Part shown: piece by piece, positions 16,083 through 35,835 of the stretch
How positions within the stretch are numbered: the first letter of the stretch is position 1
Layout of the letters: each line of letters begins with the position of its first letter
Origin: a virus
Lineage: Duplodnaviria > Caudoviricetes
IMG/VR virus record: IMGVR_UViG_3300021335_000015
Coordinates: 1 to 62,215 of that record
Direction: 5' to 3' (one strand)
DNA length: 62,215 nt
Position numbers and translations under genes: made by a program
The notes under the pieces: model-generated
Database searches by the model: none
Seen by the model: the letters and a program-made list of their open reading frames with translations, nothing else
Told to the model about the DNA's origin: nothing

Positions 16083-16391
16083 ATGTCTCAGTATGGGATC
16101 GAGGTTCGTGGACCTAACAATTCAACACCAGTACTGTCGAGTAGACTACGTGCATCTAACGTAGTCGTTTACTCTCCGTTCGATTTAGACCCGAACGAAA
16201 GTGTCACTATCTCGTGCGCGGACGCCAATGACTCCACAAGAGTTGCAATAACCTTGATGGGTCCAAACACGCCTTTTGGAAATTACCTACGAGGTGTTAT
16301 TGTATCGAATAGAACCTCCACCAACTTCACCATAACGAATGCAGATCCATTCGCCAGATCTGGCACTGTACTCGCTTTTAGGATTGCATAA
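16083..16391 (+). CDS. Small fibre-tip accessory protein, cassette 2
   Basis: MSQYGIEV start, 102 aa, ends VLAFRIA, parallel to 14516-14830. Confidence 0.55.
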   Translation: MSQYGIEVRGPNNSTPVLSSRLRASNVVVYSPFDLDPNESVTISCADANDSTRVAITLMGPNTPFGNYLRGVIVSNRTSTNFTITNADPFARSGTVLAFRIA

Positions 16392-19300
16392 TGAGTTATG
16401 GTTTTAGAATCACGGGGAACGACACCGCACCCTTCACAGTACTCGATACCGAATTAGATACTCTGGGACTAGTGGTCACAGAGAAAGGTCGAGCGAGTGT
16501 CATCAACCCATCATACCCACTAGGACCATACGATTTCTTGTTCGTCAAGAATCCATCTGCGCCTGGTAATTCAAACTTTGAAAGCCAAACCCAATATCCC
16601 GCACCACAGACCGTTGTCTATTGGGCGTCTCCGCAGTATTATTTCATGCACACCAGCAGCACCACAGGTGCGATAAGCTTCAAGGGTGGTGCATATGATT
16701 ACTACCCAGATCCATACAACCCAAGAAACCTGCCTAGACTTGCTTTGGCGACTGGGTGGGACGTAGAGTTTGATTACTTTATTGTTCGTCGATCTACTGA
16801 TATCATATCAGAAGGACTAGGTCGCGATGACAACTACGGTCTACAGGTAAGGAGTAAGTTTTATACGGACGCCGATCCAATTCTTGCGTATGACTCCAGA
16901 TCCGCGATCACCAACGATACATTTTACATAGAAACCTATCTACCTCCGGCTAGTCAGTTCTATACACCAGCTTCGCAGAGTCAGGGATATTACTCAAGTG
17001 TGAGTTTTAGTTCTGGATGTTACGTAAACATCAACTGGACCAATAGAACCATCGGCGGAGACTTCCCTTCGGGGGTCAACTTCATTCAGGCTATCGGCAT
17101 GACTGCGACTAGGGCGTGGGCGGTTACTGGTCTTTTAGAGTTAGAAGATGGTGGACGATTCTTCATCGATGGAAACAGTACCGCGATCCTTGCTGTCAAA
17201 TTAAGAGACCCTTCTAACGTATACCAGAACACGGGTGCTACTGACGCTGACGATGAAGAACAAGAAACCGCACCCGATGGAGATGACGTAGATACAAATT
17301 ATACAGGGTCTCTTGCATATGTTGCGGGGGACACTTTCACTGAAGGTGGAACCATCCAATTCGATGCGACCGTTAACACTCCTAACGTAGGATACCACAC
17401 CAAAATATTCAGAGTCACTGGTAGTGGAGATGATCTGGATGCAATCACTCATGTCTTTACTGGGGGATTCGGCGCAGAGAGAATTAGCATAACAGCAAAT
17501 AATGATTCTGTCAATGATAGTCGTACAGTTTCGTATATGAGAACCCAAAACTACGTGGGCAATTATACAACAACAAGAGACTCATCATACACACGAGGTT
17601 TCTTAGGAAACTTTGCGGGTGACTATACTCGCAACTTTGCAGGAAACTATACTCGCAACAGTTCTTACAACAGGAACTTCGCAGGTAATTATACTAGATC
17701 AAGTGCATACGGCAGAACTTTAAATTTCCAGAGAGACTTCACCAGAAATTATTTAAGAACTCGCGTGTCTAGTTATTCACGTGGAATTGTTTCTTCTAGG
17801 TCTAGTGTTTATTCTAGGATTAGGTTGGCGTATAGTCAGAACAGTTTCGTTGGAAACTATACCAGAATTTTGCAAGTACCAACCGCATTCACCAGAACAG
17901 GTGAGTACGTCGGTAACTACACTCCAACGAAATCTACGGCATATTTCACTCCGGTCACTGGACCTGAAGATCCAGGCGTAATTTACGTAAACATTCCCGC
18001 ACCATTTGTCGGAAACTATAACAGGACATTTGTCGGCAATTATTCAGGCGCATATACCAGAGACTTCACCAGAGGGGTTTCTTATGAAGGCAACTACTCT
18101 CGTAACTTCGCTGGAAACTTCGCTGGTAATTATTCTAGGAATCTATTTTTCTCTCGTAACTTCGTAGGTGATTACGCTCGCGGAGTGGTGAGGGTCTCTT
18201 CATATACTAGGACCAGAGTTACAAATTATACTGGAGACTTCCAAAGAGGATCTACCTATGTGGGTAACTACAGTAGAAACTTTGTGGGTAACTTCGGCAG
18301 AACTATCGCAACGAATAAAACATACAGTAGAACTAGAATAAGTGTTTACACTCCTCTAGCGGATTATGCTAGAACGAGTACACGTACCTTTGTGGGCAGT
18401 CGCACACAAGGATTCATCGGAAACTACAATAGATCATTTATTGGAGACTACACCAGAGGTAGTACTTACGCTAGAAACTTCGTGGGTAACTACACAAGAG
18501 GTAGTACTACCACAGCAAATTACAACAGAACCTTTGTAGGAAACTATAGTAGGACAGAAACTGGAGTCGACCCATATCAATACTCCAGTACCTACGGTTC
18601 AGAGTATCAGTGGATAGTACGACCAGACAATAACGTTGACGACGATGGGTTTGGCACTGGGGGCAGTGGATGGGTATTAGAGGTAAAATGGAATGGAACC
18701 AATGTCTTTGTTGGAGACTATACCACACAGTCTAACGCTCTTGCTGTGACTGTTGTACAGAACCCAGGCCAAACCGAATGGTATTGGAAGGGCGATATCG
18801 TAACTTCCAATCCTTTCTTTGGTTCCTTGTTTGAGGTAGCAAACACTCAAAGTGGATTTGCGCCAACAAATACAACAACCACCAGTTACACTAGAGATAG
18901 GGTCAGTTCCTATTCAAGAACTGTCGGTGGTGCTACTCCATACTCTAGGACCAGACAGTCTACGTACAGTAGAACAATTAACTCCACTCGAAGTAGAGTT
19001 TCTGCATACACGAGAACTCGCAATGTAACCTATAATACAAATAGAGTATCCAGTTATGTGGGCAACTTTACTGGACCTTCTAGTCGATTTATATATGATC
19101 CCGATGCGCAAGGATTGATTGAAGTCTTTAATACTTACACTCGTGAATTCGTAGGTAACTATACGGGACAATACACCAGACAGTCCGGCAGAATTGTAAC
19201 TAGGACCAGTGCCTATTCAAGGACTAGAACTTCGACTTTAAATTCCACGAGAGTGTTCACTGGAAATTTTGCAGGAAACTATAGCAGGAACATAACAGAC

Positions 19301-20494
19301 AATCCTACGTATAATAGAACCAGAAGTTCAGTTTATTCTAGGAGTAGTACATACGCTAGAACCTCAACCAGAACTCGCACAAGCTCTTACACTAGGAACA
19401 GAACCGCTAATCCAGTGAGGACATCCTCGTACTCTGGAACATACAACAGAAACAGGGTGAGTTCGTATACCAGAGATAGGTACTCTACATTCACTAGAAC
19501 TTCTACAAGGTTAATGCACTTTGCAGGTAATACTCCTACAGAGACCGACTATACGAGAACTCGTGTATCCTCTTATCTCGGAAACTACACGGGTGAATAC
19601 ACAAGAGATCTATACTTCACAGGTAACCCAACATACAACAGGAATTTTGTGGGCGAATATGCGAGAACCAGCGTAGGAACATTTACTAGATCTTCTGGAT
19701 ACTCAAGAACCTTGACTTCTAACAGAACTAGAACCAGTGGATACTCAAGAACCTTGACTTCGACTAGAACTAGAACCAGTAATTACACCAGAGAAAGACA
19801 AAGCACGGCAGGGGAAAGTTACATCCGAACGTTTACAGGAAACTTTGTCGGAAACTATATCGGTAATTATACAAGGACTAGTGTCGGAACAAGCTCTGGA
19901 GTTTCTGAGGTCAAGTGGAAAGGTGAACAATTCCTCATGGAACTCCGTGTGGGATCTGCCGGAGAAGCATTGACTTTTGGACAGAACGACGCAAACTCCA
20001 TCATACTTGATTCTAAAACATTTACATTGTTTGATAACGATGCAGGTACAGTTCTTGCGACTACAGGAGTCTCAGTATCGGACACAGACACCACTCACAA
20101 ACTTCTTGTCGACTTCAAGTCCAGTGGCAATCAAGTTGCGAGTGCAAGGGTCACTACGGTTGTCGGTGGAGTGTCTTCGATTATGGCAGGTCCGTTTGAT
20201 CTAGTAGATGGATTGAATGAGGTTACAGTAACCAATGCTCCTCAAGTTGTGTCGGGTGCAGTCGTTACCTACTATATACATGTGAACAATAACGGGACTT
20301 CCGGATACTGGGTGCCTGGCGGACAATACACCGTATCGCGTGTTTACACCAATGATAATGATGGACAAGATCCGCCGCCAGGAGGAACGCCAACAGATAG
20401 TGATGGAACAAATCCACCGGACGGTCCAACAGATCCGGGCAATCCAGATGGACCGGGCGATGAAACCCCAGATCCTGGCTCAGAATTCGATTAG
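16391..20494 (+). CDS. Fibre-tip protein carrying a mirror-paired R/Y/T/G/N/F tetrapeptide hairpin insert
   Basis: N-terminus resembles 14827-15639 (YGFRITG, DYFIV, YGLQVR..YDSR); central repeats FVGN/YTRT/RVSS surround a 110-aa non-repetitive tip. Confidence 0.7.
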   Translation: MSYGFRITGNDTAPFTVLDTELDTLGLVVTEKGRASVINPSYPLGPYDFLFVKNPSAPGNSNFESQTQYPAPQTVVYWASPQYYFMHTSSTTGAISFKGGAYDYYPDPYNPRNLPRLALATGWDVEFDYFIVRRSTDIISEGLGRDDNYGLQVRSKFYTDADPILAYDSRSAITNDTFYIETYLPPASQFYTPASQSQGYYSSVSFSSGCYVNINWTNRTIGGDFPSGVNFIQAIGMTATRAWAVTGLLELEDGGRFFIDGNSTAILAVKLRDPSNVYQNTGATDADDEEQETAPDGDDVDTNYTGSLAYVAGDTFTEGGTIQFDATVNTPNVGYHTKIFRVTGSGDDLDAITHVFTGGFGAERISITANNDSVNDSRTVSYMRTQNYVGNYTTTRDSSYTRGFLGNFAGDYTRNFAGNYTRNSSYNRNFAGNYTRSSAYGRTLNFQRDFTRNYLRTRVSSYSRGIVSSRSSVYSRIRLAYSQNSFVGNYTRILQVPTAFTRTGEYVGNYTPTKSTAYFTPVTGPEDPGVIYVNIPAPFVGNYNRTFVGNYSGAYTRDFTRGVSYEGNYSRNFAGNFAGNYSRNLFFSRNFVGDYARGVVRVSSYTRTRVTNYTGDFQRGSTYVGNYSRNFVGNFGRTIATNKTYSRTRISVYTPLADYARTSTRTFVGSRTQGFIGNYNRSFIGDYTRGSTYARNFVGNYTRGSTTTANYNRTFVGNYSRTETGVDPYQYSSTYGSEYQWIVRPDNNVDDDGFGTGGSGWVLEVKWNGTNVFVGDYTTQSNALAVTVVQNPGQTEWYWKGDIVTSNPFFGSLFEVANTQSGFAPTNTTTTSYTRDRVSSYSRTVGGATPYSRTRQSTYSRTINSTRSRVSAYTRTRNVTYNTNRVSSYVGNFTGPSSRFIYDPDAQGLIEVFNTYTREFVGNYTGQYTRQSGRIVTRTSAYSRTRTSTLNSTRVFTGNFAGNYSRNITDNPTYNRTRSSVYSRSSTYARTSTRTRTSSYTRNRTANPVRTSSYSGTYNRNRVSSYTRDRYSTFTRTSTRLMHFAGNTPTETDYTRTRVSSYLGNYTGEYTRDLYFTGNPTYNRNFVGEYARTSVGTFTRSSGYSRTLTSNRTRTSGYSRTLTSTRTRTSNYTRERQSTAGESYIRTFTGNFVGNYIGNYTRTSVGTSSGVSEVKWKGEQFLMELRVGSAGEALTFGQNDANSIILDSKTFTLFDNDAGTVLATTGVSVSDTDTTHKLLVDFKSSGNQVASARVTTVVGGVSSIMAGPFDLVDGLNEVTVTNAPQVVSGAVVTYYIHVNNNGTSGYWVPGGQYTVSRVYTNDNDGQDPPPGGTPTDSDGTNPPDGPTDPGNPDGPGDETPDPGSEFD

Positions 20495-20508: not shown

Positions 20509-20991
20509 ATGGATAATTTAAAATACATTGCATACATCAATCCAAACACTGGTAAGATAGTACGATTGACTGTGCCGCAGTACAAGGCAGATCCTGAAGG
20601 ACTAGATCAGGACGGTCACTTTGTTGTACACGTCAGCTCGGCAAACTTACCAGAGAACTGTGATGACTTGCGTTACTTCATGGACAATCACTGGTACGAC
20701 ACCGAAAATCACAAATTCATATTTGTCGGTCAACCATGCAACAGTTATGCGACTTGGAGTCTGGAGAAAGGATGGTGGGATTGGGATCCTGAACTAGTAT
20801 ATGCAGACATTCGTAAAACAAGGAATGCGTTGTTGAGTGCTTGTGATTGGACTCAACAAATGGATGTGCCTCTAAGTGAATCAAAACTCCAAGAATGGGT
20901 GACATACCGTCAACAACTGCGTAATATTACAGACAATTTACCAGATGATATTTTGTCAGTAAATGATGTGGTTTGGCCGGTCAGTCCATAA
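20509..20991 (+). CDS. Tail fibre assembly chaperone, paralog of 15645-16073
   Basis: IRKTRNALLSACDWT...WVTYRQQLRNIT...VVWP. Confidence 0.8.
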   Translation: MDNLKYIAYINPNTGKIVRLTVPQYKADPEGLDQDGHFVVHVSSANLPENCDDLRYFMDNHWYDTENHKFIFVGQPCNSYATWSLEKGWWDWDPELVYADIRKTRNALLSACDWTQQMDVPLSESKLQEWVTYRQQLRNITDNLPDDILSVNDVVWPVSP

Positions 20992-21116: not shown

Positions 21117-24100
21117 GTGTCAGCATCTAGTATACCACTAAAAATTCAAAATGCTAATGGTGACCTACAGGAATTCACTCCATCGGATGAGTTGTATCTA
21201 TCCTATGCAGTGGGAGAAGCGTTAGTTGCGGCCGCATCTAACGACGTTGGTAATATCAGTTTAACTGATGGCCAATCAATCGGTTCGTTTGTAGATTCTT
21301 ACTACAATGAAATATCTGGTACCCACCCTGCTTCACAGATCACGGGTACCTCAGTGACCACCACTCTGAAGCAAGTGAGTGGCCCAGCAGACGAATCCGG
21401 TGCAGACTTTGTCCGCCCAGTAGGTTATTACGACGTTGCTCCAAACCCAGGCTTCTACGAAATGGTAGACGGGGATATGGACAACTTAGCAGGTCGTGTT
21501 CTATCTAACTTAGTACAGAACGACTATATCGGTACTTTCAAACTGTCCGCTACTCAACCAAGTGCAGACTATACAAAGTTTATTGACTCTGTATTCTCTG
21601 ACACTCACGGTAACGGCGGTGCAGGTACCGTAGTAACAAACTACCACATTTGGATGCGTACTTCTATGACGGCAGTTGCTCCAGTTCGTCCAGTAGCGAC
21701 AAGCTACGACGGTACTGGTTTCAACGGTCTACGTGAAATGACAGATGCCCAGATCCAGTATACACTAGGTCAACGCATCAAGTCACTTCGTGCTACTTCC
21801 GGAGCGATTGGTTCATACCAACTACGTTCAGCAGCACAAGGCGCACCAACAGTCCCAGGCACATGGGTGTCTGTAGGTACTGCACAGAACACACGTCGTA
21901 CACCAGTTGACGTTGCATACGCAAGAACTCGCGTATCTTCATACAACCGTGCACGTGTTTCTGCATACACTCGTACTCGTGTATCTTCATACACGCGTGA
22001 CAGTGTAGATAATTTTGCTCGTACCTTTGTAGGAGACTACACGGGTGCATACTCACGTGACTTCGTAGGAAACTACTCGCGTGACTTTGTTGGGAACTAC
22101 TCACGTACTCGCCCATCATCGTACTCAGGTACATACGCACGTACTCGCGTTTCATCATATTCACGTACTCGCCTAACAGCGTTCACTGGATACTTCGCGG
22201 GAACTTACTCACGTGCTCGTGTTTCGGTTTACACTCGTAACCGCGTAACACCATTTACTGGTACATTCTCACGTAACCGTATATCATCATACACTCGTGG
22301 TCGTGTATCAACCTACTCAGATACATACTCGCGTAATCGTATATCATCATACGCTGCAGCTTATGTTCGTACTCGCGTATCTTCATACACTGGAACTTAT
22401 TCGGGAACATACTCCCGTCTACGTGTCTCTGCGTATGCTGGAACATACACGCGTAACCGTGTTTCTTCTTATGCTGGAACATACACACGAACTCGTGTAT
22501 CTACTTACGCAACTGACTTTACCCGCACCCGTGAAGAGAACTTCGCAGGGACTTACACTGGTTACTATACTGGCGTATTCTCTCGTGCTCGTGTATCAAC
22601 ATATACGCGTAACCGTGTAACAGGTTTCGCAGGTAACTTCATCGGAAACTACTCTCGCAACTTCCAAGGTAACTATTCACGTAACTTCGTGGGTAACTAC
22701 TCTCGTGGATTTGCTGGTAACTACGTAGGTAACTACTCTCGCGTATCAACACGCACATCAACTCGCACACGTTACAGTGCTTACGCAAGAACACGCATCA
22801 CTAACTACGTTGGTGACTTTGCTCGTGATCGCGTCACTAACTTTGCGGGTAACTTCGTGGGCAACTACGCTCGCACCTTCGTAGGTAACTACGGTGGTAA
22901 CTTTATCGGAAACTACGCTCGTGACTTCGTTGGAAACTTCGTTGGTAACTACGCTCGCGCATATGTAGGTAACTACTCTCGCGGATTCGTAGGCAACTAC
23001 GGTCGTAACTACCTTGGTAACTTTGTCGGTAACTACAGCCGTAACTTCCTTGGTGACTTCACCGGAAACTACGCTCGTGGTTTCGTCGGTGACTTCGTTG
23101 GAGATTTCGTAGGTAACTACGCACGTACTTCAACTCGTACATCGACTCGCACACGTTACTCGGCTTATGCTCGTACTCGCGCAACGAACTACACACGTAA
23201 CCGTGGTTCTGCTTACGCTCGTACATCTACTCGTACTCGTTACAGTGCATACGCTCGTACTCGTGCGACAAACTATACAAGAACTCGTGGTTCAGCTTAC
23301 GCACGTACTCGTATCACTAACTACGTTGGTGACTTCGTTCGTACATCGACTCGTAGCAGACCATCTACGTTCTCTTACGCACGTACTCTGTACTACGCAG
23401 GTAACTTCGTAGGCAACTATGGTCGTACTCGTGTAACTAACTACACTCGTGCTTCAGCGGTAGGTGTAACTTATACAGGTAACTACACACGTAACCTATA
23501 CTACGTTGGTAACTACGCTCGTGGATACGCAGGTAACTACGTTGGTGATTATGCTCGTAACCGTGCATTCTCATACGTTGGTAACTATGCTCGTAACCGC
23601 GCATTCTCATATGTCGGTAACTACGCACGTACTCGTGTAACTAACTACACTCGCACATCAACTGGTACTGGCACATATACTCGTAACCGTCCGTACTCAT
23701 TCGTAGGTAACTACACAAGAACTCGTGCGACGAACTATACTCGTACATCAACTGGTACTGGTACATATACTCGTAACCGTGCAGCTTCCTATGCTGGTGA
23801 TTTCGCAGGTAACTTCACGGGTAACTTTACACGTACTGGATCATCGACTCGTGTTTCTACTGGTGGATCGGGTACCTACGTACAAGACCAATACCTAACG
23901 GGTAAAGGTGGTGATACTTACTGGGGTTGGAACGGATACTCGAACCAAGTTGAAATTAAACACAGACTGAAGGGTAACTTTACTGTCACTAGTGGTGTAA
24001 ACGCTAACACTACTATGGTTACCGTTTCTACGGGTGAGACTTTCTGGCGTGGTAATGCAAGAACGAGTGGTACTTATGTACGTTACGGTCTGACATATTA

Positions 24101-26132
24101 CCAAGACGGTACTACGGACTATACTGGTAACTTTACAAATACTACATCATATACTAGCACATCTACTCGCACATCAACACGCACACGTGCAGCTACTTAC
24201 ACAGGTAACTACGCACGTACTTTATACTACACTGGTGATTTCGTAGGTAACTTTGGTGGTACATATACCCGTACTCGTACTGGTAACTACACTGGTAACT
24301 ACACTCGTACTCTATACTACACTGGTGATTTCGTAGGTAACTTTGGTGGTACGTATACTCGTACTCGTACTGGTGCATACACTGGCAACTACGCTCGTAC
24401 TCGTACTGGTAACTACACTGGTAACTACGCACGTACTTCGACTCGCACACGTTACAGTGCTTACGCACGTACTCGCGTTGCGACAGGTACTTACACACGT
24501 AACCGCGCTGCGACACTATACTACACTGGTGACTTTGTAGGTAACTTCGCAGGTGCATACACACGCACATCAACACGTACATCTACTAACACTGGTTACT
24601 ACACACGCACACTAACTTACGCAGGTAACTACGTGGGTAACTATGCGACAACGTTCACTGGCGACTTCGTCGGTAACTATACGCGTAACTTTGCGGGTGA
24701 CTATGTTGGTAACTTCGTAGGTAACTATACACGTGGATTTGCTGGTGACTTCGTAGGCAACTACGCTCGCACATTCGTGGGTGATTTCGTAGGTAACTTC
24801 GTAGGTAACTATGCACGTGGATACGCTGGTAACTTTGCTGGCGACTTCGTCGGTAACTACGCACGTACTCGTGTAACTAACTACACTCGTACTCGTAACT
24901 CTGCGTACACACGTAACCGCACACAGAACTTTGCGAACTCTTACTCTCGCACACGTGAAACAAACTTCACTGGTTACTTCACACGTAACCGTGCATCCGC
25001 ATACGCTCGTACTCGTTACAGCGCATACGCTCGCACACGTGTAACTAACTACGTCGGTGACTTCACACGCGATTCAACCCGCACATCTACTCGTAACCGT
25101 GGTTCGGCTTACGCACGTGATCGTGTAACCAACTTCGCTGGTAACTTCGTAGGAAACTACGCAACAACGTTTACCGGAGACTTTGTTGGTAACTACGCAC
25201 GTGGATTTGCTGGTGACTTTGCTGGTAACTTTACTGGTGACTATGCTCGTACTTCAACGCGCACTCGTTACTCTGCATACGCACGTACTCGTGTATCTGC
25301 ATACGTCCGCAACCGTGGATCATCATACACCCGTGACCGTGTAACTAACTTTGCTGGTGACTTCGTAGGCAACTACGCTCGCACCTTCACTGGTAACTAC
25401 ACACGTCAGTTCGCTGGTGAGTATGTTGGTGATTACGTAGGAACGTTCGCAGGTAACTACGTAGGCAACTTCAGCCGTGACTTCGGTGGAAACTACGTTG
25501 GTAACTACGCTCGTGGATTTGCTGGTAACTATGTTGGTAACTACAACCGTAGTTTCGCAGGTGAGTACACTGGTGCTTACTCTGGTGCATACTCTCGTAA
25601 CTTCGTGGGTGACTACACAGGTAACTACAACCGTGGATTCGCAGGTGAGTATGTGGGCAACTACGCAACCACATTTACTGGTAACTACTCTCGTGGATTC
25701 TCCGGTCAGTACACACGCGACTTCGCAGGTGACTTCGTGGGTAACTACTCAAGAACATTTGCTGGTGAGTACACTGGTGCTTATGCGCGTGACTTTACAG
25801 GTAACTTCGTGGGTAACTACTCGCGTGACTTCGTCGGTGAGTACACTGGTGCTTACTCTCGTGACTTCGTAGGTAACTACTCTCGTGTCCGTGTATCTGC
25901 ATACGCACGTATCAGACCATCTGCTTACTCAGGTGCATACACACGTGACCGTGTTTCTTCTTACCTAGGAAACTTCATCGGTAACTACTCTCGTGACTTT
26001 GGTGGTAACTACACCCGTGAGTTTGCTGGAAACTACGCACGTAGTTTCGTCGGTAACTACATCGGTCAGACCATCTCTGGTACAGAGACACACGTTACAG
26101 ATGTGTACACACTATACGTAAGGGTTGCATAA
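21117..26132 (+). CDS. Giant self-complementary hairpin fibre protein (267-aa base, 650-aa arm, 84-aa tip, 650-aa arm, 20-aa tail)
   Basis: GTG start after AGAGAG, late promoter upstream, strongly biased codons; tetrapeptide units match in mirror order. Confidence 0.85.
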   Translation: MSASSIPLKIQNANGDLQEFTPSDELYLSYAVGEALVAAASNDVGNISLTDGQSIGSFVDSYYNEISGTHPASQITGTSVTTTLKQVSGPADESGADFVRPVGYYDVAPNPGFYEMVDGDMDNLAGRVLSNLVQNDYIGTFKLSATQPSADYTKFIDSVFSDTHGNGGAGTVVTNYHIWMRTSMTAVAPVRPVATSYDGTGFNGLREMTDAQIQYTLGQRIKSLRATSGAIGSYQLRSAAQGAPTVPGTWVSVGTAQNTRRTPVDVAYARTRVSSYNRARVSAYTRTRVSSYTRDSVDNFARTFVGDYTGAYSRDFVGNYSRDFVGNYSRTRPSSYSGTYARTRVSSYSRTRLTAFTGYFAGTYSRARVSVYTRNRVTPFTGTFSRNRISSYTRGRVSTYSDTYSRNRISSYAAAYVRTRVSSYTGTYSGTYSRLRVSAYAGTYTRNRVSSYAGTYTRTRVSTYATDFTRTREENFAGTYTGYYTGVFSRARVSTYTRNRVTGFAGNFIGNYSRNFQGNYSRNFVGNYSRGFAGNYVGNYSRVSTRTSTRTRYSAYARTRITNYVGDFARDRVTNFAGNFVGNYARTFVGNYGGNFIGNYARDFVGNFVGNYARAYVGNYSRGFVGNYGRNYLGNFVGNYSRNFLGDFTGNYARGFVGDFVGDFVGNYARTSTRTSTRTRYSAYARTRATNYTRNRGSAYARTSTRTRYSAYARTRATNYTRTRGSAYARTRITNYVGDFVRTSTRSRPSTFSYARTLYYAGNFVGNYGRTRVTNYTRASAVGVTYTGNYTRNLYYVGNYARGYAGNYVGDYARNRAFSYVGNYARNRAFSYVGNYARTRVTNYTRTSTGTGTYTRNRPYSFVGNYTRTRATNYTRTSTGTGTYTRNRAASYAGDFAGNFTGNFTRTGSSTRVSTGGSGTYVQDQYLTGKGGDTYWGWNGYSNQVEIKHRLKGNFTVTSGVNANTTMVTVSTGETFWRGNARTSGTYVRYGLTYYQDGTTDYTGNFTNTTSYTSTSTRTSTRTRAATYTGNYARTLYYTGDFVGNFGGTYTRTRTGNYTGNYTRTLYYTGDFVGNFGGTYTRTRTGAYTGNYARTRTGNYTGNYARTSTRTRYSAYARTRVATGTYTRNRAATLYYTGDFVGNFAGAYTRTSTRTSTNTGYYTRTLTYAGNYVGNYATTFTGDFVGNYTRNFAGDYVGNFVGNYTRGFAGDFVGNYARTFVGDFVGNFVGNYARGYAGNFAGDFVGNYARTRVTNYTRTRNSAYTRNRTQNFANSYSRTRETNFTGYFTRNRASAYARTRYSAYARTRVTNYVGDFTRDSTRTSTRNRGSAYARDRVTNFAGNFVGNYATTFTGDFVGNYARGFAGDFAGNFTGDYARTSTRTRYSAYARTRVSAYVRNRGSSYTRDRVTNFAGDFVGNYARTFTGNYTRQFAGEYVGDYVGTFAGNYVGNFSRDFGGNYVGNYARGFAGNYVGNYNRSFAGEYTGAYSGAYSRNFVGDYTGNYNRGFAGEYVGNYATTFTGNYSRGFSGQYTRDFAGDFVGNYSRTFAGEYTGAYARDFTGNFVGNYSRDFVGEYTGAYSRDFVGNYSRVRVSAYARIRPSAYSGAYTRDRVSSYLGNFIGNYSRDFGGNYTREFAGNYARSFVGNYIGQTISGTETHVTDVYTLYVRVA

Positions 26133-26245: not shown

Positions 26246-26707
26246 ATGAGTTATAGACGTTGGATGGACAACGCTTTTTGGGAAACAGAAGAAAAGAAAG
26301 AACTAAACTGTATCCTAGAAATGGAAGATGATGTGGGTCGTGTCACCCGTCAACAGATGATGTTGTCAAGACATGACCGTGATGGAAATCCTAACGAGTT
26401 GTTTGCAGAAGTTGTAGATGCGCTTGGTGAAGAGTTGATTGATAAGGAAACTACCGATCGAGTCGAACGCAAAGCTGCGGAGGCGGAAGAAGAGAAACAA
26501 CGTGAGTTGGAACATCAAAAGGCAAGGAAACTTGAGAAACTGTTCAACTATAAACTAGAAGCGTTTGAGGTTGAAGAGATCAAGAACTCTAAGAACCGAA
26601 AGTTGAAGGCAAAATTGCGTCGTGCAAAATCAAAGATTGAAGTCGATATGTACTCAATCATGATTCTACAAGACCAACTAGAGGCCGAGACCGATGGAAA
26701 AGAGTAA
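26246..26707 (+). CDS. Hypothetical charged helical protein
   Basis: 153-aa ORF with GGAG SD, overlaps the next gene. Confidence 0.65.
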   Translation: MSYRRWMDNAFWETEEKKELNCILEMEDDVGRVTRQQMMLSRHDRDGNPNELFAEVVDALGEELIDKETTDRVERKAAEAEEEKQRELEHQKARKLEKLFNYKLEAFEVEEIKNSKNRKLKAKLRRAKSKIEVDMYSIMILQDQLEAETDGKE

Positions 26708-27431
26708 AGGGTTTATTATCGTTGCGTCAAAGAAACGCAACTTTTATTTGTACGCAATCAATCTTGCAGAGTCTCTCAGGGACTACTATGAACCAGAAGA
26801 GGAATGCAAGATCTGTTTGGTGACTGAGGAACGATTCCTTGATGACCGTGGTCGAGATGTCGCAGACGATATTCTCTTATGTGACGATCACTACCGCGCG
26901 AAGTTGTGGGGAATGGCGAAATCGCCGTATGACCTAACGATGTATATCGATGCTGATATGGAAGTAGAACACGAAGACATCTGTAAAGTTTGGGATGAAA
27001 TGAAAGATCACGATGTGGTCTTTACTGCTTTGACAGATGATCGTGACTACATATATGCAGAACGTGACTTCGACACCCCAGAGGGTGTTTCTAAGTTCAC
27101 ACTATGCGGTGCAGTATGTTTATATGATATGTCCAAACCGATTGTGCGTGAGTTCATGGATGATTGGTGGGACTTGACATTCAGACAGATGAATGACACT
27201 TGGTGGCCAGACGGGTATGCGGACAGTCTCAAATCTTGGGACCAGTTCTCACTCTGGTGGTTGACCGAGAAAGAAGAAAAGTATAAGGATCTCAAAGTTG
27301 GAATCTTTGATGACGACTTGAGATGGAACTACTACAACGCACTTAATTGGGCAATAACAAAACCAGAAACAGGGCCAGTGATTATCCGTCACTTCTCTGC
27401 TGGTCTTAATAAGGATACACCAATCGTATGA
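26694..27431 (+). CDS. GT-A fold glycosyltransferase-like protein
   Basis: GFIIVA start, KLWGMAKSPYDLTMYIDAD (DxD), WDQFSL, RWNY and IIRH motifs. Confidence 0.7.
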   Translation: MEKSKGFIIVASKKRNFYLYAINLAESLRDYYEPEEECKICLVTEERFLDDRGRDVADDILLCDDHYRAKLWGMAKSPYDLTMYIDADMEVEHEDICKVWDEMKDHDVVFTALTDDRDYIYAERDFDTPEGVSKFTLCGAVCLYDMSKPIVREFMDDWWDLTFRQMNDTWWPDGYADSLKSWDQFSLWWLTEKEEKYKDLKVGIFDDDLRWNYYNALNWAITKPETGPVIIRHFSAGLNKDTPIV

Positions 27432-29922: not shown

Positions 29923-32900
29923 ATGGCATTTAGGCAGATTAAATCCCCTGCATTAGCGGACAAGGCGGTACTCAATACCAAACTTGACGAAAGTGCTGTA
30001 CAGGGACAATCAACCCTTCAAGGTATGGTAAATCCAGCTGACTGCTTTACTCTTCTTTACGATGTGGGTTCTGACTCACTAAAGAAGATTGGTGCAGACC
30101 AGTTTTTCGCTTCGTTCAGCACGTCTGACCTAGCGGAAGGTTCTAACCTATACTATACCGCCGATCGTGCTAATGCTGATGTCGCTGCTCAAATCGACGC
30201 AGACGTTCTAGTAGAAACACAACGCGCACAAGCTGCAGAAACACTACTACAGAACAACATCGACGCAGAAGCAAGTGCTCGTGCTCAAGCAGACGTTACC
30301 CTACAGGCTAACATCACTGCGGAAGAGACACGCGCGAAGGCACGTGAAGATTCAATCGAAGCTGCATACATTGCGGCAGATGCTGCATTACAGACACAGA
30401 TCAGTAACTTCATCAATAACGTAGACAGCGATTCACTAGACTCTCTAGCGGAAATCGTAGAAGCATTCCAGAACGCGGACGACGCACTATCTGCTTCTAT
30501 CATCGCAAACGCTACTGCAATCACAACCGAAGTTAACCGTGCTGTTGCAAAAGAAACAGAAATCAACGACCGTGTTACTGTCGAAATATCTCGCGCTCAA
30601 TCAGCAGAAACTTCACTTGCTGGTCTAATCGGCGCGGAAGAGACTGCACGTATCGCTGGCGACAACGCACTATCTGCACGACTAGACACAGAAGAGACCA
30701 AGTCTACTTCTCTACAGTCTCAGATCACTGCTGAAGTCACTCGCGCTACTGGCGAAGAGTCACGTATCGAAGGTCGTCTTGACGGCGAGATCTCTCGTGC
30801 AACTAGCGCAGAAGCTGCAAACGCACAAAACATCCAAGATGAGATCGTTGCACGTGCAGTTGCTGACAACCAAGTTCGTACTGATCTAGGCGCAGACATC
30901 GTTGCGGCAGAAGCTGCGGCGAAGGCACACGCTGAGTCACAAGACGAAACAATGATCGGTGATGAGACTGTTGATGGTACTTCAGGTAACACAATCACAG
31001 ATCGTATTGCAACTGCAAAAGCAGAAGCAATCACTGAATCAAGCAACTCAACTGCAATCGAGAACGCTGCACGTATCGCAGGCGACTCTGATCTGAACGC
31101 TCGCGTTGATCAAGAAATCGTTGATCGTCTTGCTGGTGACGCTGCTAACTCAGCAGAAGTTGCGGCAGAAAAGACACGTGCGGAAGGTGTTGAAGCAGGT
31201 CTACAATCACAGGTCGACTTCATCACATCAAACACTGATCCAGCGGCACTAGACTCACTAACAGAAATCGTTGGTGCGTTCCAGTCTGCGGACTCAGATA
31301 TGTCCGCTCTAATCGCATCTAACACTACTGCGATTTCAAACGAAGCGACTGCTCGTTCGTCTGCTGACACTACTCTACAGGGCAACATTGATGCAGAAGC
31401 ATCAACTCGTTCAACTGCGGATGCGGGTCTACAGTCTCAGATCGATCAGATCAACGTTGACATCAACGTCTCAACACAAGACGTACTAGATCAAGCGAAG
31501 GCATATACGGATCAAGAAGCTGATTCGCACATGGCGGAAGCTAAGCAACACGCTGACGCACAAGACACTGCACTAATCGGTGACGCATCTGTAAACGGTA
31601 CTAGTGGAAACACAATCACTGACCGTATCGCAACTGCGAAGCAACAGGCAGTATCACACGCAAACGCAATCGTATCTACAGAAGAAGCTGCTCGTATCGC
31701 TGCTGACGATGCACTATCTCTACGTACAACAGTACTAGAAGGCGAGATGGATGCTGTCGAGACTCTATCTTCACAGAACGAAACAGACCTACGTGCAGAA
31801 GAAGTTGCACGTGCATCTGGTGACTCAGACCTACAAGCACAGGTCGATGCACTAAACTCCAACACTACAATCGAAGTTGATGATCTACAAGCACAGATCA
31901 CTGCGGAAGTTACTCGCGCATCTACTGCGGAAGCAACAAACGCGGCATCTGTCGTTACAGAACGTCAACGTGCAGAAGGTGTTGAAGCAGGTCTACGCGC
32001 TGACATCAACACAAACATTGGTAACATCTCTACAAACGCAGGTAACATCACGATCGAGCAAGCTGCACGTATCGCTGGTGATGCGGCACTATCGACTCGC
32101 GTTGATAACCTAGAAGAAGGTTTCACAAACGTTGACTCTGATCTACAAGCTCAGATCTTCGCAGAAGTCGCTCGTGCATCTGGTGCTGAATCAGTACTAA
32201 CTGCAACTGCAACTAGTCTACAAGGTCAGATCACTGACAACGATTCAGACATCCTTGCCCTACAGGGTCTAGTTGGTTCTGACGTACAAGATCTACAAGA
32301 CCAGTTAGATGCAGAGGTTTCTCGTGCAACTACAGCAGAAGGTGTTAACGCTGCGGCAGTTGTGGCAGAGAAGAATCGTGCAGAAGGTGTTGAAGCAGGT
32401 CTACGTACAGACGTTGATTCTAACCAATCACAAATCACTGCAAACGATTCAGATATCCTTGCACTTCAGATCCTACAGGCATCTGATCACAACGATAACC
32501 AAGCACAGATCACTGCTGAAGTTAACCGTGCGACTGCCGCTGAAGGCGTCCTACAGTCTAACATCGATGCAGAACAGGCACGTGCTGAAGGTATCGAATC
32601 TGGTCTACGTACTGACGTAGATAGTGTACAGGCGCAGGTTACTGCAAATGACTCTGACATCCTTGCTCTACAAAATCTACAATCAGGTGACGTTACAGAC
32701 CTACAGAACCAGTTGGACGCAGAAATTGTTCGTGCTACTGGTGTTGAAACTGGTATCCGCACAGACCTAACAACTCTTGAAGGTCGTGTTGACTTTATCG
32801 TTTCTAACGAAGATGGTGCGGCACTAGACTCACTAACAGAAATTGTTGGTGCGTTCCAAGACGCAGACTCAGATCTACAAGGTGTTATCGATGCTAACGG

Positions 32901-35835
32901 TGGTCGTCTAACTACCCTAGAATCAGAAATGGACGCAGTCGAACTACGTGCTACTGACCTAGAAGCAAAAGACGTTGCTCACACTAACCGACTAAACGGT
33001 TTAGATTCTGATCAGATCGTACAAAACACTCGTTTGAGCGGTGTTGAAGGACGTGCTACTGCACTAGAAACCAAGCAAGGTTCTGCACTTCTACACACAA
33101 CTGCAACAAACGTTTCTGACGCGATTAACGAACTACACGCAGAGATCGATGGCGAAGCTGCTGATCTAACTGCACTAGAAGCTCGTGTAACCACAGAAGA
33201 AGCAAACGTTGACGAACTACAAGCAGAAATGGATGCCGTCGAAGCACGTGCAACTGCTCTTGAAGGTCGCGCAACTGTAAACGAAGGTGACATCGATGAC
33301 CTAGAAACTAAGGTCGGAACTGCATCTCTTGCAACTGTTGCAACTGATCTATCTGCTGCAATCAACGAACTACACGCTGAACTAGACGTAGAAGTTGGTG
33401 ACCTAACATCACTAGAAGGTCGCGTAACTACTGCTGAAGGTGAGATCGATACACTGCAATCAGAAATGGATGCAGTCGAAGGTCGCGCAACTTCACTAGA
33501 ATCACGCATGACAACTGAAGAAGGTCACGTTGACGTTCTACAGGGTCAGATGGGTTCACAAGTACTAACAACAACTGCATCAACTGTTACTGCTGCTGTC
33601 AACGAGTTACACGCTCAGACAGACGTAGACGAAGGTCGTATCTCTACCCTAGAAGGTGAGATGGACGCGGTTGAAGGTCGTGCAACTTCACTAGAGACTC
33701 GTGCTACTGCGCTAGAGACAGAACAGACACTACAAGCTGGTCGTCTAACTGTCAACGAAGCAGACATCGACGCTCTTGAATCGAAGGTCGGTGCTGAAGC
33801 ATTCGACACAACTGCACAGACAATCTCTGGTGCTGTGAACGAAGTTCACGGTGAACTAGACGCAGTTGAAGGTCGTATGACTGCTGCTGAGTCTCGTGCT
33901 GACGCGGACAGTGACGCTCTTGTACAAGAGATCGCTGATCGTACTGCTGCGGACACACAGATCCGTATTGATCTAGCTGCTGATCGTACAACTGACCAAT
34001 CAGACTACATCGCACGTGACGCGGTTGTCCTTGCATCTGCACAATCATACGCAGAAGCAGAAGCGGACGACGCAGAAGCTGCTGCTAAGACATACGCAGA
34101 TGGCATCGTTGCGAACGAAGCTGCACTACGTTCTGGTGCTGATGCAACTCTACAGGGTAACATCGACGCAGAAGCAACTGCACGTCAAATTGCTGACAAC
34201 GGACTAGACTCACGTCTAACAGTTGTTGAGACAGAGATGACTGCAACTCAACTTGCTGCTGGTGTAAACGCTGATGGTACTTACAACACACCAACAGGTT
34301 CTAACTACCTAGACGCATCTACATCTCTATCAGATGCAGCTGCGAAACTAGATGCGGCAATCAAGGCAGTTGACAACACACGCAACTCTGGCACTAACAA
34401 TCTACAATCACAGATTGATGCTGAGATCGCACGTGCTACCGCTGCTGAAGGTGCAAACACCGTACTAATCAACGGTGAGATTGCTCGTGCAACTAGTGCG
34501 GAATCTGACCTAGGTGATCTGATCACAACTAACGCTCAGTCAATCGCTGCAGAAGCTGCACGTGCGCAGGGTGTTGAGACATCACTACAGTCACAGATCG
34601 ACTTCGTCGTATCTAACACTGACTCTGCTGCACTAGATTCTCTAACAGAGATCGTTGCTGCACTTCAGTCTGGTGATGGTGATCTACTAACTCTAATCCA
34701 AACTAACCAAACAGACATCGCTACTAACGCTTCTGGACTTGCACAAGAGATCACTGATCGTGCAGCACAGGGTGCGGCGATTCGTGGTGAGTTCGCTGCT
34801 GCGGACGCAACCCTACAGACTCAGATCGACGGTAAAGTCGCTAAGTCTGGAGACACCATGTCTGGTTCTCTATCAATGGGTGGCAACAAAGTCACTTCAG
34901 TCGCTAACGGTACAGACCCACAAGACGCAGTAAACAAGGGTCAGTTGGATGCAGGTCTTGCTGCACAACACATCTCGCAGTTCTCAACTACAGATGTTGC
35001 CGAAGGTGATAACCTATACTTCACAACTGCTCGTGCACGTGCCTCAGTATCTGCGGTCGACACTGCTGGTGAAGGTAAGGTATCTTACGATCCATCGACT
35101 GGTGCATTCTCAGTTGACACTGCTAAGTCTATCCTAGAACTAGTAGACGTTGCTGATTCATCATACGACGGTAAGAACGGTTACGTTCTACGTGTAACTA
35201 ACACGCTAGACGGAATGTCTCTACAGGATCCAACTCAGTTGGCATTCAACAACGCACAGCGTCAGACAATGGCTGGTGACGGTGCACAGACTACATTCGC
35301 ACTAGACTTCTACACGCAAGACCAAAACGCAATCGTCTTCGTTGGTGGTGTTATTCAGGATCCAGGCGTACACTACAACATTGATGCGATCAACCAGTTG
35401 ATCACATTCAACGCTGCAATCCCAGTTGGTACACAAGCGGTTGTAATCGCTCAGTCTACTAACTCGGTTGGTGTACTAGATCCTAAGTCGGTAGGTCTGG
35501 AAACTCTTGCTGATAACATCAAGGTCTTCGAACAGGGTAACGACATTGTCGCTGGAACTTCTGCTACTGTAGTTTCTGCATTCAACAAGTCTCAGTACCG
35601 TTCTGCGAAGTATGTTGTAACAGTAGAGTCAGGTGGTGAATTCGAAACTCGTGAGGCACTAGTTGTCCACGATGGAACATCCGCTTACATCGTTGAGTAT
35701 GGTGTCGTATTCACTGGTTCATCATTCCTAGGTGATACAGACGTACAAGTTAACGGAGAAAGTATCGAACTACTATACACCGCTGAATCAGCAGGTGCGG
35801 TAGTTTCTGTCTCAGTAACTTACGTTGACGCATAA
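29923..35835 (+). CDS. 1970-aa coiled-coil fibre/whisker protein
   Basis: E-x-x-R-A-x-x-A-E repeats, four LDSL(T/A)EIV knots, YadA-like VANGTDPQDAVNKGQL neck, two (D)xxEGxNLY motifs, C-terminal YRSAKYVV domain. Confidence 0.75.
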   Translation: MAFRQIKSPALADKAVLNTKLDESAVQGQSTLQGMVNPADCFTLLYDVGSDSLKKIGADQFFASFSTSDLAEGSNLYYTADRANADVAAQIDADVLVETQRAQAAETLLQNNIDAEASARAQADVTLQANITAEETRAKAREDSIEAAYIAADAALQTQISNFINNVDSDSLDSLAEIVEAFQNADDALSASIIANATAITTEVNRAVAKETEINDRVTVEISRAQSAETSLAGLIGAEETARIAGDNALSARLDTEETKSTSLQSQITAEVTRATGEESRIEGRLDGEISRATSAEAANAQNIQDEIVARAVADNQVRTDLGADIVAAEAAAKAHAESQDETMIGDETVDGTSGNTITDRIATAKAEAITESSNSTAIENAARIAGDSDLNARVDQEIVDRLAGDAANSAEVAAEKTRAEGVEAGLQSQVDFITSNTDPAALDSLTEIVGAFQSADSDMSALIASNTTAISNEATARSSADTTLQGNIDAEASTRSTADAGLQSQIDQINVDINVSTQDVLDQAKAYTDQEADSHMAEAKQHADAQDTALIGDASVNGTSGNTITDRIATAKQQAVSHANAIVSTEEAARIAADDALSLRTTVLEGEMDAVETLSSQNETDLRAEEVARASGDSDLQAQVDALNSNTTIEVDDLQAQITAEVTRASTAEATNAASVVTERQRAEGVEAGLRADINTNIGNISTNAGNITIEQAARIAGDAALSTRVDNLEEGFTNVDSDLQAQIFAEVARASGAESVLTATATSLQGQITDNDSDILALQGLVGSDVQDLQDQLDAEVSRATTAEGVNAAAVVAEKNRAEGVEAGLRTDVDSNQSQITANDSDILALQILQASDHNDNQAQITAEVNRATAAEGVLQSNIDAEQARAEGIESGLRTDVDSVQAQVTANDSDILALQNLQSGDVTDLQNQLDAEIVRATGVETGIRTDLTTLEGRVDFIVSNEDGAALDSLTEIVGAFQDADSDLQGVIDANGGRLTTLESEMDAVELRATDLEAKDVAHTNRLNGLDSDQIVQNTRLSGVEGRATALETKQGSALLHTTATNVSDAINELHAEIDGEAADLTALEARVTTEEANVDELQAEMDAVEARATALEGRATVNEGDIDDLETKVGTASLATVATDLSAAINELHAELDVEVGDLTSLEGRVTTAEGEIDTLQSEMDAVEGRATSLESRMTTEEGHVDVLQGQMGSQVLTTTASTVTAAVNELHAQTDVDEGRISTLEGEMDAVEGRATSLETRATALETEQTLQAGRLTVNEADIDALESKVGAEAFDTTAQTISGAVNEVHGELDAVEGRMTAAESRADADSDALVQEIADRTAADTQIRIDLAADRTTDQSDYIARDAVVLASAQSYAEAEADDAEAAAKTYADGIVANEAALRSGADATLQGNIDAEATARQIADNGLDSRLTVVETEMTATQLAAGVNADGTYNTPTGSNYLDASTSLSDAAAKLDAAIKAVDNTRNSGTNNLQSQIDAEIARATAAEGANTVLINGEIARATSAESDLGDLITTNAQSIAAEAARAQGVETSLQSQIDFVVSNTDSAALDSLTEIVAALQSGDGDLLTLIQTNQTDIATNASGLAQEITDRAAQGAAIRGEFAAADATLQTQIDGKVAKSGDTMSGSLSMGGNKVTSVANGTDPQDAVNKGQLDAGLAAQHISQFSTTDVAEGDNLYFTTARARASVSAVDTAGEGKVSYDPSTGAFSVDTAKSILELVDVADSSYDGKNGYVLRVTNTLDGMSLQDPTQLAFNNAQRQTMAGDGAQTTFALDFYTQDQNAIVFVGGVIQDPGVHYNIDAINQLITFNAAIPVGTQAVVIAQSTNSVGVLDPKSVGLETLADNIKVFEQGNDIVAGTSATVVSAFNKSQYRSAKYVVTVESGGEFETREALVVHDGTSAYIVEYGVVFTGSSFLGDTDVQVNGESIELLYTAESAGAVVSVSVTYVDA

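Follow-up and report, generated by a model that had tools for sequence, protein, structure and literature searches.

The gene considered here lies in a window of 62,215 nucleotides (nt), which is the whole of a 62-kb linear virus record (IMG/VR record IMGVR_UViG_3300021335_000015; Duplodnaviria, Caudoviricetes) estimated to be 34% complete. It encodes a putative fibre protein in which two long arms of short repeat units flank a small non-repeat tip (Table 1). The units of the second arm complement those of the first in mirror order, and when counted inward from the two outer ends they follow a strict pairing rule. An initial annotation of this DNA, made from the sequence alone, had divided the shaft into two 1950-nt arms, each of 159 tetrapeptides and seven dipeptides, around a tip of 84 amino acids (aa); these coordinates and counts hold.

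Table 1. The putative fibre gene, its parts and associated features (positions in the window)
Feature	Position	Strand	Details
Whole gene	21117-26132	+	Open reading frame (ORF) for a putative fibre protein of 1671 aa; GTG start; stop at 26130-26132
N-terminal globular domain (N-domain)	21117-21917	+	267 aa; acidic, isoelectric point (pI) 4.6; presumed attachment or base domain
Arm 1	21918-23867	+	650 aa; 159 tetrapeptide units and 7 dipeptides; net charge +82
Tip	23868-24119	+	84-aa non-repeat segment; most variable part of the protein
Arm 2	24120-26069	+	650 aa; 159 tetrapeptide units and 7 dipeptides; net charge +44; mirror-order complement of arm 1
C-terminal 20 aa	26070-26129	+	Ends in the family motif ..YTLYVRVA (in the window protein ..DVYTLYVRVA)
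90-nt tandem array, arm 1	23586-23780	+	2.2 copies; mirror partner is the array at 24198-24402
90-nt tandem array, arm 2	24198-24402	+	2.3 copies; mirrors the array at 23586-23780
Second pair of arrays with the same period	23538-23631 and 24358-24437	+	36-nt period
Tail-fibre assembly chaperone	20509-20991		Just upstream of the fibre gene

Ten residue types (Y, F, R, G, S, T, N, A, V and D) account for nearly all of both arms. Neither contains Lys or His, Arg occurs 100 times in arm 1 and 77 times in arm 2, and the 650 residues of each arm include 56 and 62 Ala and four and one Pro, respectively. The tip holds three Lys and three Trp, two residues that are missing from both arms. The dominant period is eight residues (a YxRx unit and then RVSS or FVGN), and the composition is blocky, with R-led units abundant in the base-side part of arm 1 and Gly units in arm 2. 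The shaft as a whole (21918-26069) is strongly cationic, with a total charge of +126 and a pI of 10-11, and three large ORFs of the same module (1534-6348, 29923-35835 and 35905-37881) are strongly acidic, with net charges of -193, -222 and -71 and a pI of 4.1. Residue counts and charges thus agree with the initial description of the arms as Arg-rich, Lys-free and unlike the acidic fibres. A cationic shaft beside very acidic giant proteins raises questions about how such a fibre is stowed or how it contacts the cell surface.

Mirror complementarity of the two arms

The arms were parsed into units by dynamic programming, with scores for an aromatic residue, Arg or Ser at position 1 and for Arg, Gly, Ser or Thr at position 3. 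This gave 166 tokens per arm after one ambiguous eight-residue stretch (FS-YART-LY) had been corrected by hand. In the mirror register, units are counted inward from both outer ends and residue x of the protein faces residue 1919-x. At this register each of the 59 Arg-led units (arm 1 has 36 and arm 2 has 23) stands opposite an [FY]xGx unit, and none faces another Arg-led unit, a Ser-led unit or a Y-x-R-x unit. The same kind of partner lies opposite 19 of the 20 Ser-led units, the exception (STRV/FTNT) adjoining the tip. The YxRx units are partnered by YxRx (38), by Gly units (23) or by other aromatic-led units (5), and all seven dipeptides face a dipeptide.

Over 400 other even shifts, the number of Arg:Gly (R:G) matches averaged 8.2 (standard deviation 7.8) and did not exceed 36; the shift that reached this maximum, at +8 residues, also brought 18 forbidden pairs. 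Shifts of 8-12 residues in general retain 31-36 matches, yet they carry 17-23 forbidden pairs, against none at the true register. When the tokens of arm 2 were shuffled 20,000 times, R:G matches averaged 12.5 with a maximum of 32, and matches between dipeptides averaged 0.16 with a maximum of three. Residue-level mutual information, which the initial annotation had expected to give one sharp peak, does peak near the mirror centre, but the peak is modest (1.13 bits at shift +3 versus 0.76 ± 0.05) and a parallel control came near it, reaching up to 1.02 bits on shorter overlaps. Because this measure discriminates weakly, the unit-level counts were taken as the decisive test.

By that test the mirror match of the arms is real and far beyond chance. 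The pairing scheme read from the sequence in the initial annotation is borne out in each of its parts: the 59 Arg-led units that all face F/Y-x-G-x, the S-T-R-x units with their single tip-adjacent exception, the Y-x-R-x units that mostly lie opposite Y/F-x-R-x or Gly units, the seven mirrored dipeptides, and the aperiodic order that fits one register, with other shifts and shuffled units falling short of it.

A DNA inverted repeat, antisense translation and RNA pairing were each tested as the cause of the match and ruled out. The region contains only 13 inverted repeats, all of them scattered and imperfect (14-23 nt), and the reverse complement of arm 1 has an identity to arm 2 of 0.309 at the mirror register, compared with a maximum of 0.371 elsewhere, as expected from the earlier statement that the arms are no inverted repeats at the DNA level. 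Translation of arm 1 from the reverse strand meets 20-55 stops in the three frames and gives a protein identity to arm 2 of 13-15% (maximum 14.5%). Potential RNA pairing, G-U pairs included, amounts to 0.453 at the mirror register versus a maximum of 0.488 elsewhere, and the longest potential helix near that register is 13 nt.

Mirror symmetry is also seen in some of the tandem arrays. Residues 824-888, which make up the 90-nt array of arm 1, mirror to residues 1031-1095 (nt 24207-24401), almost the whole of the array of the same period in arm 2, and arrays with a 36-nt period likewise stand at mirror positions in the two arms. Arrays with periods of 84 and 120 nt in arm 1 are without a reported partner of the same period in arm 2.

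Relatives and the reach of the pairing rule

Relatives were sought in phage records by tblastn and in IMG/VR with the N-domain; the latter scan yielded 22 loci, and at 14 of these the gene is complete (309 to 2282 aa). Full-length homologues lie on ten IMG/VR contigs and in Phage C48C1 (Kyanoviridae; OQ984149.1), whose 3347-aa 'hypothetical protein' (L002, 612-10655) is found in the same gene order and is the one genuine relative among the phage records. The tblastn matches to a 'structural protein' of Synechococcus phage S-RIM2 were set aside as compositional, that protein being without such repeats.

The window protein and nine distinct, complete relatives (1526-2282 aa) each have almost all of their Arg-led units aligned along one anti-diagonal, which begins where the N-domain ends and stops where the C-terminal tail starts; the Arg:Gly pairs number 50 to 83 per protein, with no more than one violation in each. 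The R-led units on this diagonal number 83 of 83 in L016, 66 of 67 in L018 and 50 of 51 in L020. A gapped mirror alignment, run on five proteins, scored far above both shuffled second arms and a parallel control (Table 2).

Table 2. Gapped mirror alignment scores of five proteins
Protein	Mirror	Shuffled arm 2	Parallel control
Window	190.6	59.1 ± 7.6	58.0
L016	268.9	80.5 ± 8.0	82.9
L020	154.9	52.9 ± 6.7	40.9
L021	194.5	31.2 ± 8.5	16.1
C48C1	214.8	74.7 ± 10.3	47.3

Large insertions and deletions (indels) that separate the window protein from its relatives are matched between the arms. The comparison with L003 and L013 shows one 28-aa gap at 871-898 and a second at 1020-1047, close to the exact mirror position of 1021-1048. 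Compared with L015, there are 30-aa insertions at 833 and 1080 (mirror 1086) and 28-aa deletions at 674-701 and 1209-1236. The comparison with L020 shows 60-aa insertions at 328 and 1580 (mirror 1591), together with a 56-aa deletion in arm 1 (590-645) that is offset by four smaller deletions (28, 16, 10 and 2 aa) about the mirror position. Sites can lie up to ~26 residues off the exact mirror in places where the deleted segment is part of a tandem repeat, which makes its placement ambiguous. Globular insertions are one-sided and all in arm 2, with one of 213 aa in L021 and six in C48C1, and none of them has a Pfam match. The units that flank them still pair, giving 84 R:G pairs and one violation in C48C1, and 44 R:G plus 42 Ser:Gly (S:G) pairs and no violation in L021. 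The C48C1 homologue also carries, again in arm 2, an exact tandem duplication of ~72 aa (residues ~2008-2080 and 2080-2152), which is either real or an assembly artefact.

Changes of unit type are rare among close relatives, and the pair stays an allowed one except in two cases that adjoin the tip. Double changes are seen, with RATN/FGGT becoming FVGN/RSQQ and YTRN/YTRT becoming RTST/YVGT. Divergence from the relatives rises from base to tip, symmetrically in both arms. The N-domain is 94-99% identical to that of seven homologues (62% for L020), the base-side arm halves are ~90% identical to those of relatives, the tip-side halves are 70-90% identical, with closely similar values for the two arms of any one relative (84/85, 70/75 and 36/38% are examples), and the tip is 20-73% identical among the seven homologues. 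The initial annotation had proposed a search of homologues for compensatory changes and unequal arms. In that search the mirror rule was kept across proteins of different length, with matched indels and double changes.

A phmmer search with the N-domain against 1.84 billion representatives (clusters at 50% identity) returned 321 matches at E ≤ 1e-3, 246 at E ≤ 1e-10 and 116 at E ≤ 1e-30. The family is defined by an N-domain of ~260 aa and by a C-terminal strand motif that follows aromatic-led tetrapeptides, and the window protein has both. The motif, ..ETYTLYVR[IVT][AS], occurs in 86 (362 to 2282 aa long) of the 152 family proteins examined, and many of those without it are probably fragments; its columns are invariant or nearly so in family alignments A1 and A3. 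Loops are the most variable part of family members, ranging from ~2 to more than 100 residues.

The rule was scored in 37 complete representatives that contain 15 or more R- or S-led units, and 21 of these have a mirror z of at least 4 with no more than one violation (for example P0079 with 23 + 11 pairs, P0152 with 14 + 18 and P0123 with 22 + 1). Among 1578 unit pairs from 19 proteins, the strongest coupling is between position 1 of a unit and position 3 of its partner, at 0.55 bits above shuffles, ahead of 1-1 (0.40), 3-3 (0.37) and 1-4 (0.22). This coupling is compatible with the proposed arrangement of Arg over Gly. Of the Gly units opposite an Arg-led unit, 442 of 481 have N, D, E or Q as their last residue, and of those opposite Y-x-R-x, 93 of 190.

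Three family members differ in form. P0113 (422 aa) has ~7 copies of F-x-G-V/R-[DN]-V-N in arm 1 and ~5 copies of F-T-G-P/Q-P-Q-[NS] in arm 2, which suggests that other pairing 'alphabets' may exist in the family. A mini-form of 312 aa in L023/L024 (ORF from 9992) combines an N-domain of 28% identity with ~16 units and the C-terminal motif ..SLWVKTA. P0003 (1798 aa) matches Pfam PF14312 and PF13385 and has non-repeat stretches (1-485, 502-943) ahead of its arms; it is probably a fragment, since the sequence stops inside the repeats.

As the initial annotation had supposed, the protein belongs to no family that we could find described. No family match was obtained for the whole protein in Pfam or NCBIfam, for the N-domain in PHROGs or NCBIfam, or for the tip in Pfam or PHROGs, and no PDB chain was found at E ≤ 1 with either the protein or the family profile as query. 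The nearest ESM Atlas clusters of P0057, a 436-aa family member, are viral 'hypothetical proteins', and literature searches found no account of this family or of phage C48C1.

A probable out-and-back shaft and its alternatives

We consider it probable that the protein forms an out-and-back antiparallel shaft with a hypervariable distal tip, in which the aperiodic order of the units fixes the register. The chain would leave the N-terminal base, run along arm 1 to the small variable tip and return as arm 2, so that the conserved C-terminal strand arrives back at the base. The arms would associate antiparallel, unit on unit: units without an aromatic residue at position 1 (R-x-S/T-x and S-T-R-x) would need an [FY]-x-G-x partner, Y-x-R-x units would stand opposite Y-x-R-x or Gly units, and two-residue bulges would stand opposite two-residue bulges. 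With the unit types in an aperiodic order, there is just one register free of forbidden pairs, and the sequence may therefore work as a register code, one that would prevent slipping or mis-pairing in a very long, low-complexity, beta-prone chain. As a flat ribbon with 0.33-0.35 nm per residue, the shaft would be ~215-230 nm long. Antiparallel arms running out and back had been proposed in the initial annotation, and the single fixed register on which that proposal turns is strongly supported by the relatives, the matched indels and the symmetric divergence. The complementarity itself is observed, as are its conservation, the matched indels, the symmetric divergence and the lack of a DNA or RNA basis; physical pairing, an intramolecular hairpin as opposed to one between chains, a beta conformation, the fibre role, the length and any oligomeric state, such as the trimer suggested initially, are inferred.

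The tip is the most variable segment and the sole site of Lys and Trp between the N-domain and the tail, which makes it a candidate receptor-binding element; it likely carries receptor binding together with the extra globular domains in arm 2 of some relatives. The distal part of arm 1, the tip and the distal part of arm 2 form one contiguous block of DNA, so this cassette could be exchanged in one recombination with pairing intact, which would explain why divergence is mirror-symmetric.

Some features of the base are visible in a monomer model of P0057, obtained by AlphaFold2 with a 42-sequence family alignment. The N-domain is predicted with a predicted local distance difference test (pLDDT) score above 90, a confident 28-residue strand (260-287) exits from it, and a confident strand of 30 residues (405-434, pLDDT 82-97) forms the C-terminus; in the model these two strands likely pair with each other. 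Along with the frequency of the C-terminal motif in the family, the confident end strands point indirectly to a base domain completed by the C-terminal 20 aa, as had been suggested initially. Foldseek with the P0057 model gave no matches at E ≤ 1e-3 in PDB or BFVD, a search that may have been weakened by the 119-residue unconfident stretch of the model.

Several observations weigh against this reading or narrow its scope. The middle of the P0057 hairpin (288-406) has a pLDDT below 50, and an AlphaFold2 prediction for the tip of the window protein ± 150 aa, run without an alignment, was uninformative (mean pLDDT 33). Just two long-period tandem arrays have a mirror partner of the same period, and the close homologues contain two apparent violations of the rule, both beside the tip in a stretch of uncertain alignment. 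No significant mirror score was obtained for 16 of the 37 representatives, six of them scoring 0, and none of 12 long members rich in other aromatic-led units gave a mirror peak in a crude ungapped mutual-information scan, in which the top z values of 2.2-3.8 fell at arbitrary shifts. For this reason the code is claimed for the Arg/Ser-unit branch only. The presumed role of the gene, as a fibre of a T4-like cyanophage with a Kyanoviridae-like structural module, is read from the neighbouring genes. No cultured phage was found to carry the gene, and the C48C1 record names no host.

The same out-and-back topology could also be realized with the arms co-wound into a compact beta-helix or prism, in which the strands run across the axis and those of arm 1 and arm 2 are stacked alternately. 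The shaft would then be several times shorter, ~80 nm by a rough estimate from gp5-type geometry. The eight-residue dominant period speaks for such a form, as octapeptide repeats with Val-x-Gly form the triple beta-helix of T4 gp5, and stacked neighbours kept in register would also predict mirror complementarity and matched indels. However, a pairing that is resolved to four-residue units and, in seven of seven cases, to two-residue insertions is simplest with strands side by side, and the confident strands of the P0057 monomer model run for 28 and 30 residues without corners; we regard co-winding as unlikely. A partner in another chain seems to us distinctly improbable. Here arm 1 would lie antiparallel to arm 2 of a second subunit, in an extended or domain-swapped fibre with N-domains at both ends, and all counts of complementarity and indels would fit this duplex and a hairpin alike. 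The arguments against the duplex are that the N-domain and the C-terminal motif occur together (86/152) and are both confident in a single-chain model, that the loops are the most variable part of the protein, as a free distal end predicts, and that attachment domains at both ends of a fibre would have no obvious use in the virion.

It has also to be asked whether the mirror pattern reflects physical pairing at all, or is a by-product of nucleic-acid structure, inverted duplication or blockwise composition. The same few unit types in a blocky arrangement do produce some R:G excess by themselves, and shifts of 8-12 residues keep a good part of the matches. Against this stand the forbidden pairs that those neighbouring shifts introduce and the mirror register lacks, and the lack of any signal from DNA inverted repeats, RNA pairing or antisense identity. 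The matched indels in independent contigs argue in turn for selection on register, and the by-product explanation is, in our view, nearly refuted.

Genomic setting and comparison with known systems

The structural module of the window is 79% identical in nucleotide sequence to that of Phage C48C1, and the gene order is the same. Baseplate and fibre genes surround the gene described here. Genes upstream of the fibre gene show a weak gp8-like match (below the Pfam cut-off), DUF4815 and Phage_Tail_Tip, and a PHROG match to 'L-shaped tail fiber protein assembly' lies downstream. The downstream ORFs 26694-27431 and 26246-26707 have sub-cut-off Pfam hints of Glycos_transf_2 (E 0.0066) and Aminopep (E 0.0015), respectively. 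No proteomic or electron microscopy data for the fibre protein were found.

Ahead of the chaperone gene lies another ORF (16391-20494, + strand; 1367 aa) with the same tetrapeptide units between unrelated end domains, 355 aa at the N-terminus and 192 aa at the C-terminus. Its mirror score is 20.0 versus 0.8 ± 2.0 in 40 shuffles, with 22 Arg:Gly, 6 Ser:Gly and 10 dipeptide pairs, eight violations and a loop at about residues 723-832. A 1161-aa homologue of this second protein, L026, has a mirror score of 27.4 versus 1.2 ± 1.8.

The host range of phages is set by their long fibres, which in marine cyanophages have hardly been studied. The N-domain family is large (321 clusters) and wholly unannotated; those of its members that carry a label are viral. 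The pairing rule offers a possible answer to how long, repetitive, beta-prone chains avoid mis-registration, and the code would account for free swapping of the distal cassette. If the shaft is indeed held together by such a code, it would supply natural rules for the design of long protein rods with a set length and addressable positions.

Among phage fibres the nearest precedent is the T4 gp37 needle, described in one account as out-and-back, with six antiparallel strands (PMC9659904). As in gp37, the chain of the window protein would run out to a tip and back, with the receptor-binding part located distally on a phage fibre. The out-and-back course is confined to the last part of the gp37 fibre, whereas in the window protein it would take in the entire shaft (2 x 650 aa). 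A code of tetrapeptide units is absent from gp37, and no homology between the two was detected by sequence (PDB at E ≤ 1, Pfam) or by Foldseek with the P0057 model (E ≤ 1e-3). The gp37 needle has iron-binding His-x-His motifs along its axis, and such metal sites are missing here because the arms are without His.

In principle the nearest precedent is the stalk of the streptococcal antigen I/II adhesins (SpaP and relatives), a single chain with two unlike complementary arms that present a tip domain. According to one description of these proteins, the two repeat regions on either side of a distal globular domain associate lengthwise into a stalk over 50 nm long, at whose base the N- and C-terminal parts meet (PMC7732690). 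That stalk, part of a bacterial cell-wall adhesin, winds an alpha-helix together with a polyproline II helix and has Ala-rich heptads and PxxP motifs as its building blocks. The arms of the window protein are instead rich in Tyr, Phe, Arg, Gly, Ser and Thr, are made of four-residue units, are predicted as strands where prediction is confident, and are viral, and there is no homology between the two. Triple-stranded beta-helices of the T4 gp5 type share with the window protein short Gly repeats, an eight-residue period and the form of a long, thin, beta-rich fibre or spike. Their chains are all parallel and in register with themselves, and a mirror match between the two halves of a single chain is neither expected in them nor, to our knowledge, known.

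The remaining likeness is conceptual. In the covariation of RNA stems and in the register residues of coiled coils, a pairing rule holds two stretches together and compensatory changes fall on both sides, as they do here. The 'letters' of the present rule differ in being four-residue units, with the Gly unit as a near-universal partner and with compensation mainly by matched indels. We know of no comparable protein case at such a scale. The chances seem to us about even that these arms represent a new fibrous architecture: a single-chain hairpin with hundreds of residues per arm, held in a unique register over ~200 nm by a digital, base-pair-like code of four-residue units, which would evolve as an RNA stem does, would be portable to other proteins (ORF 16391-20494) and would tolerate globular bulges on one side.

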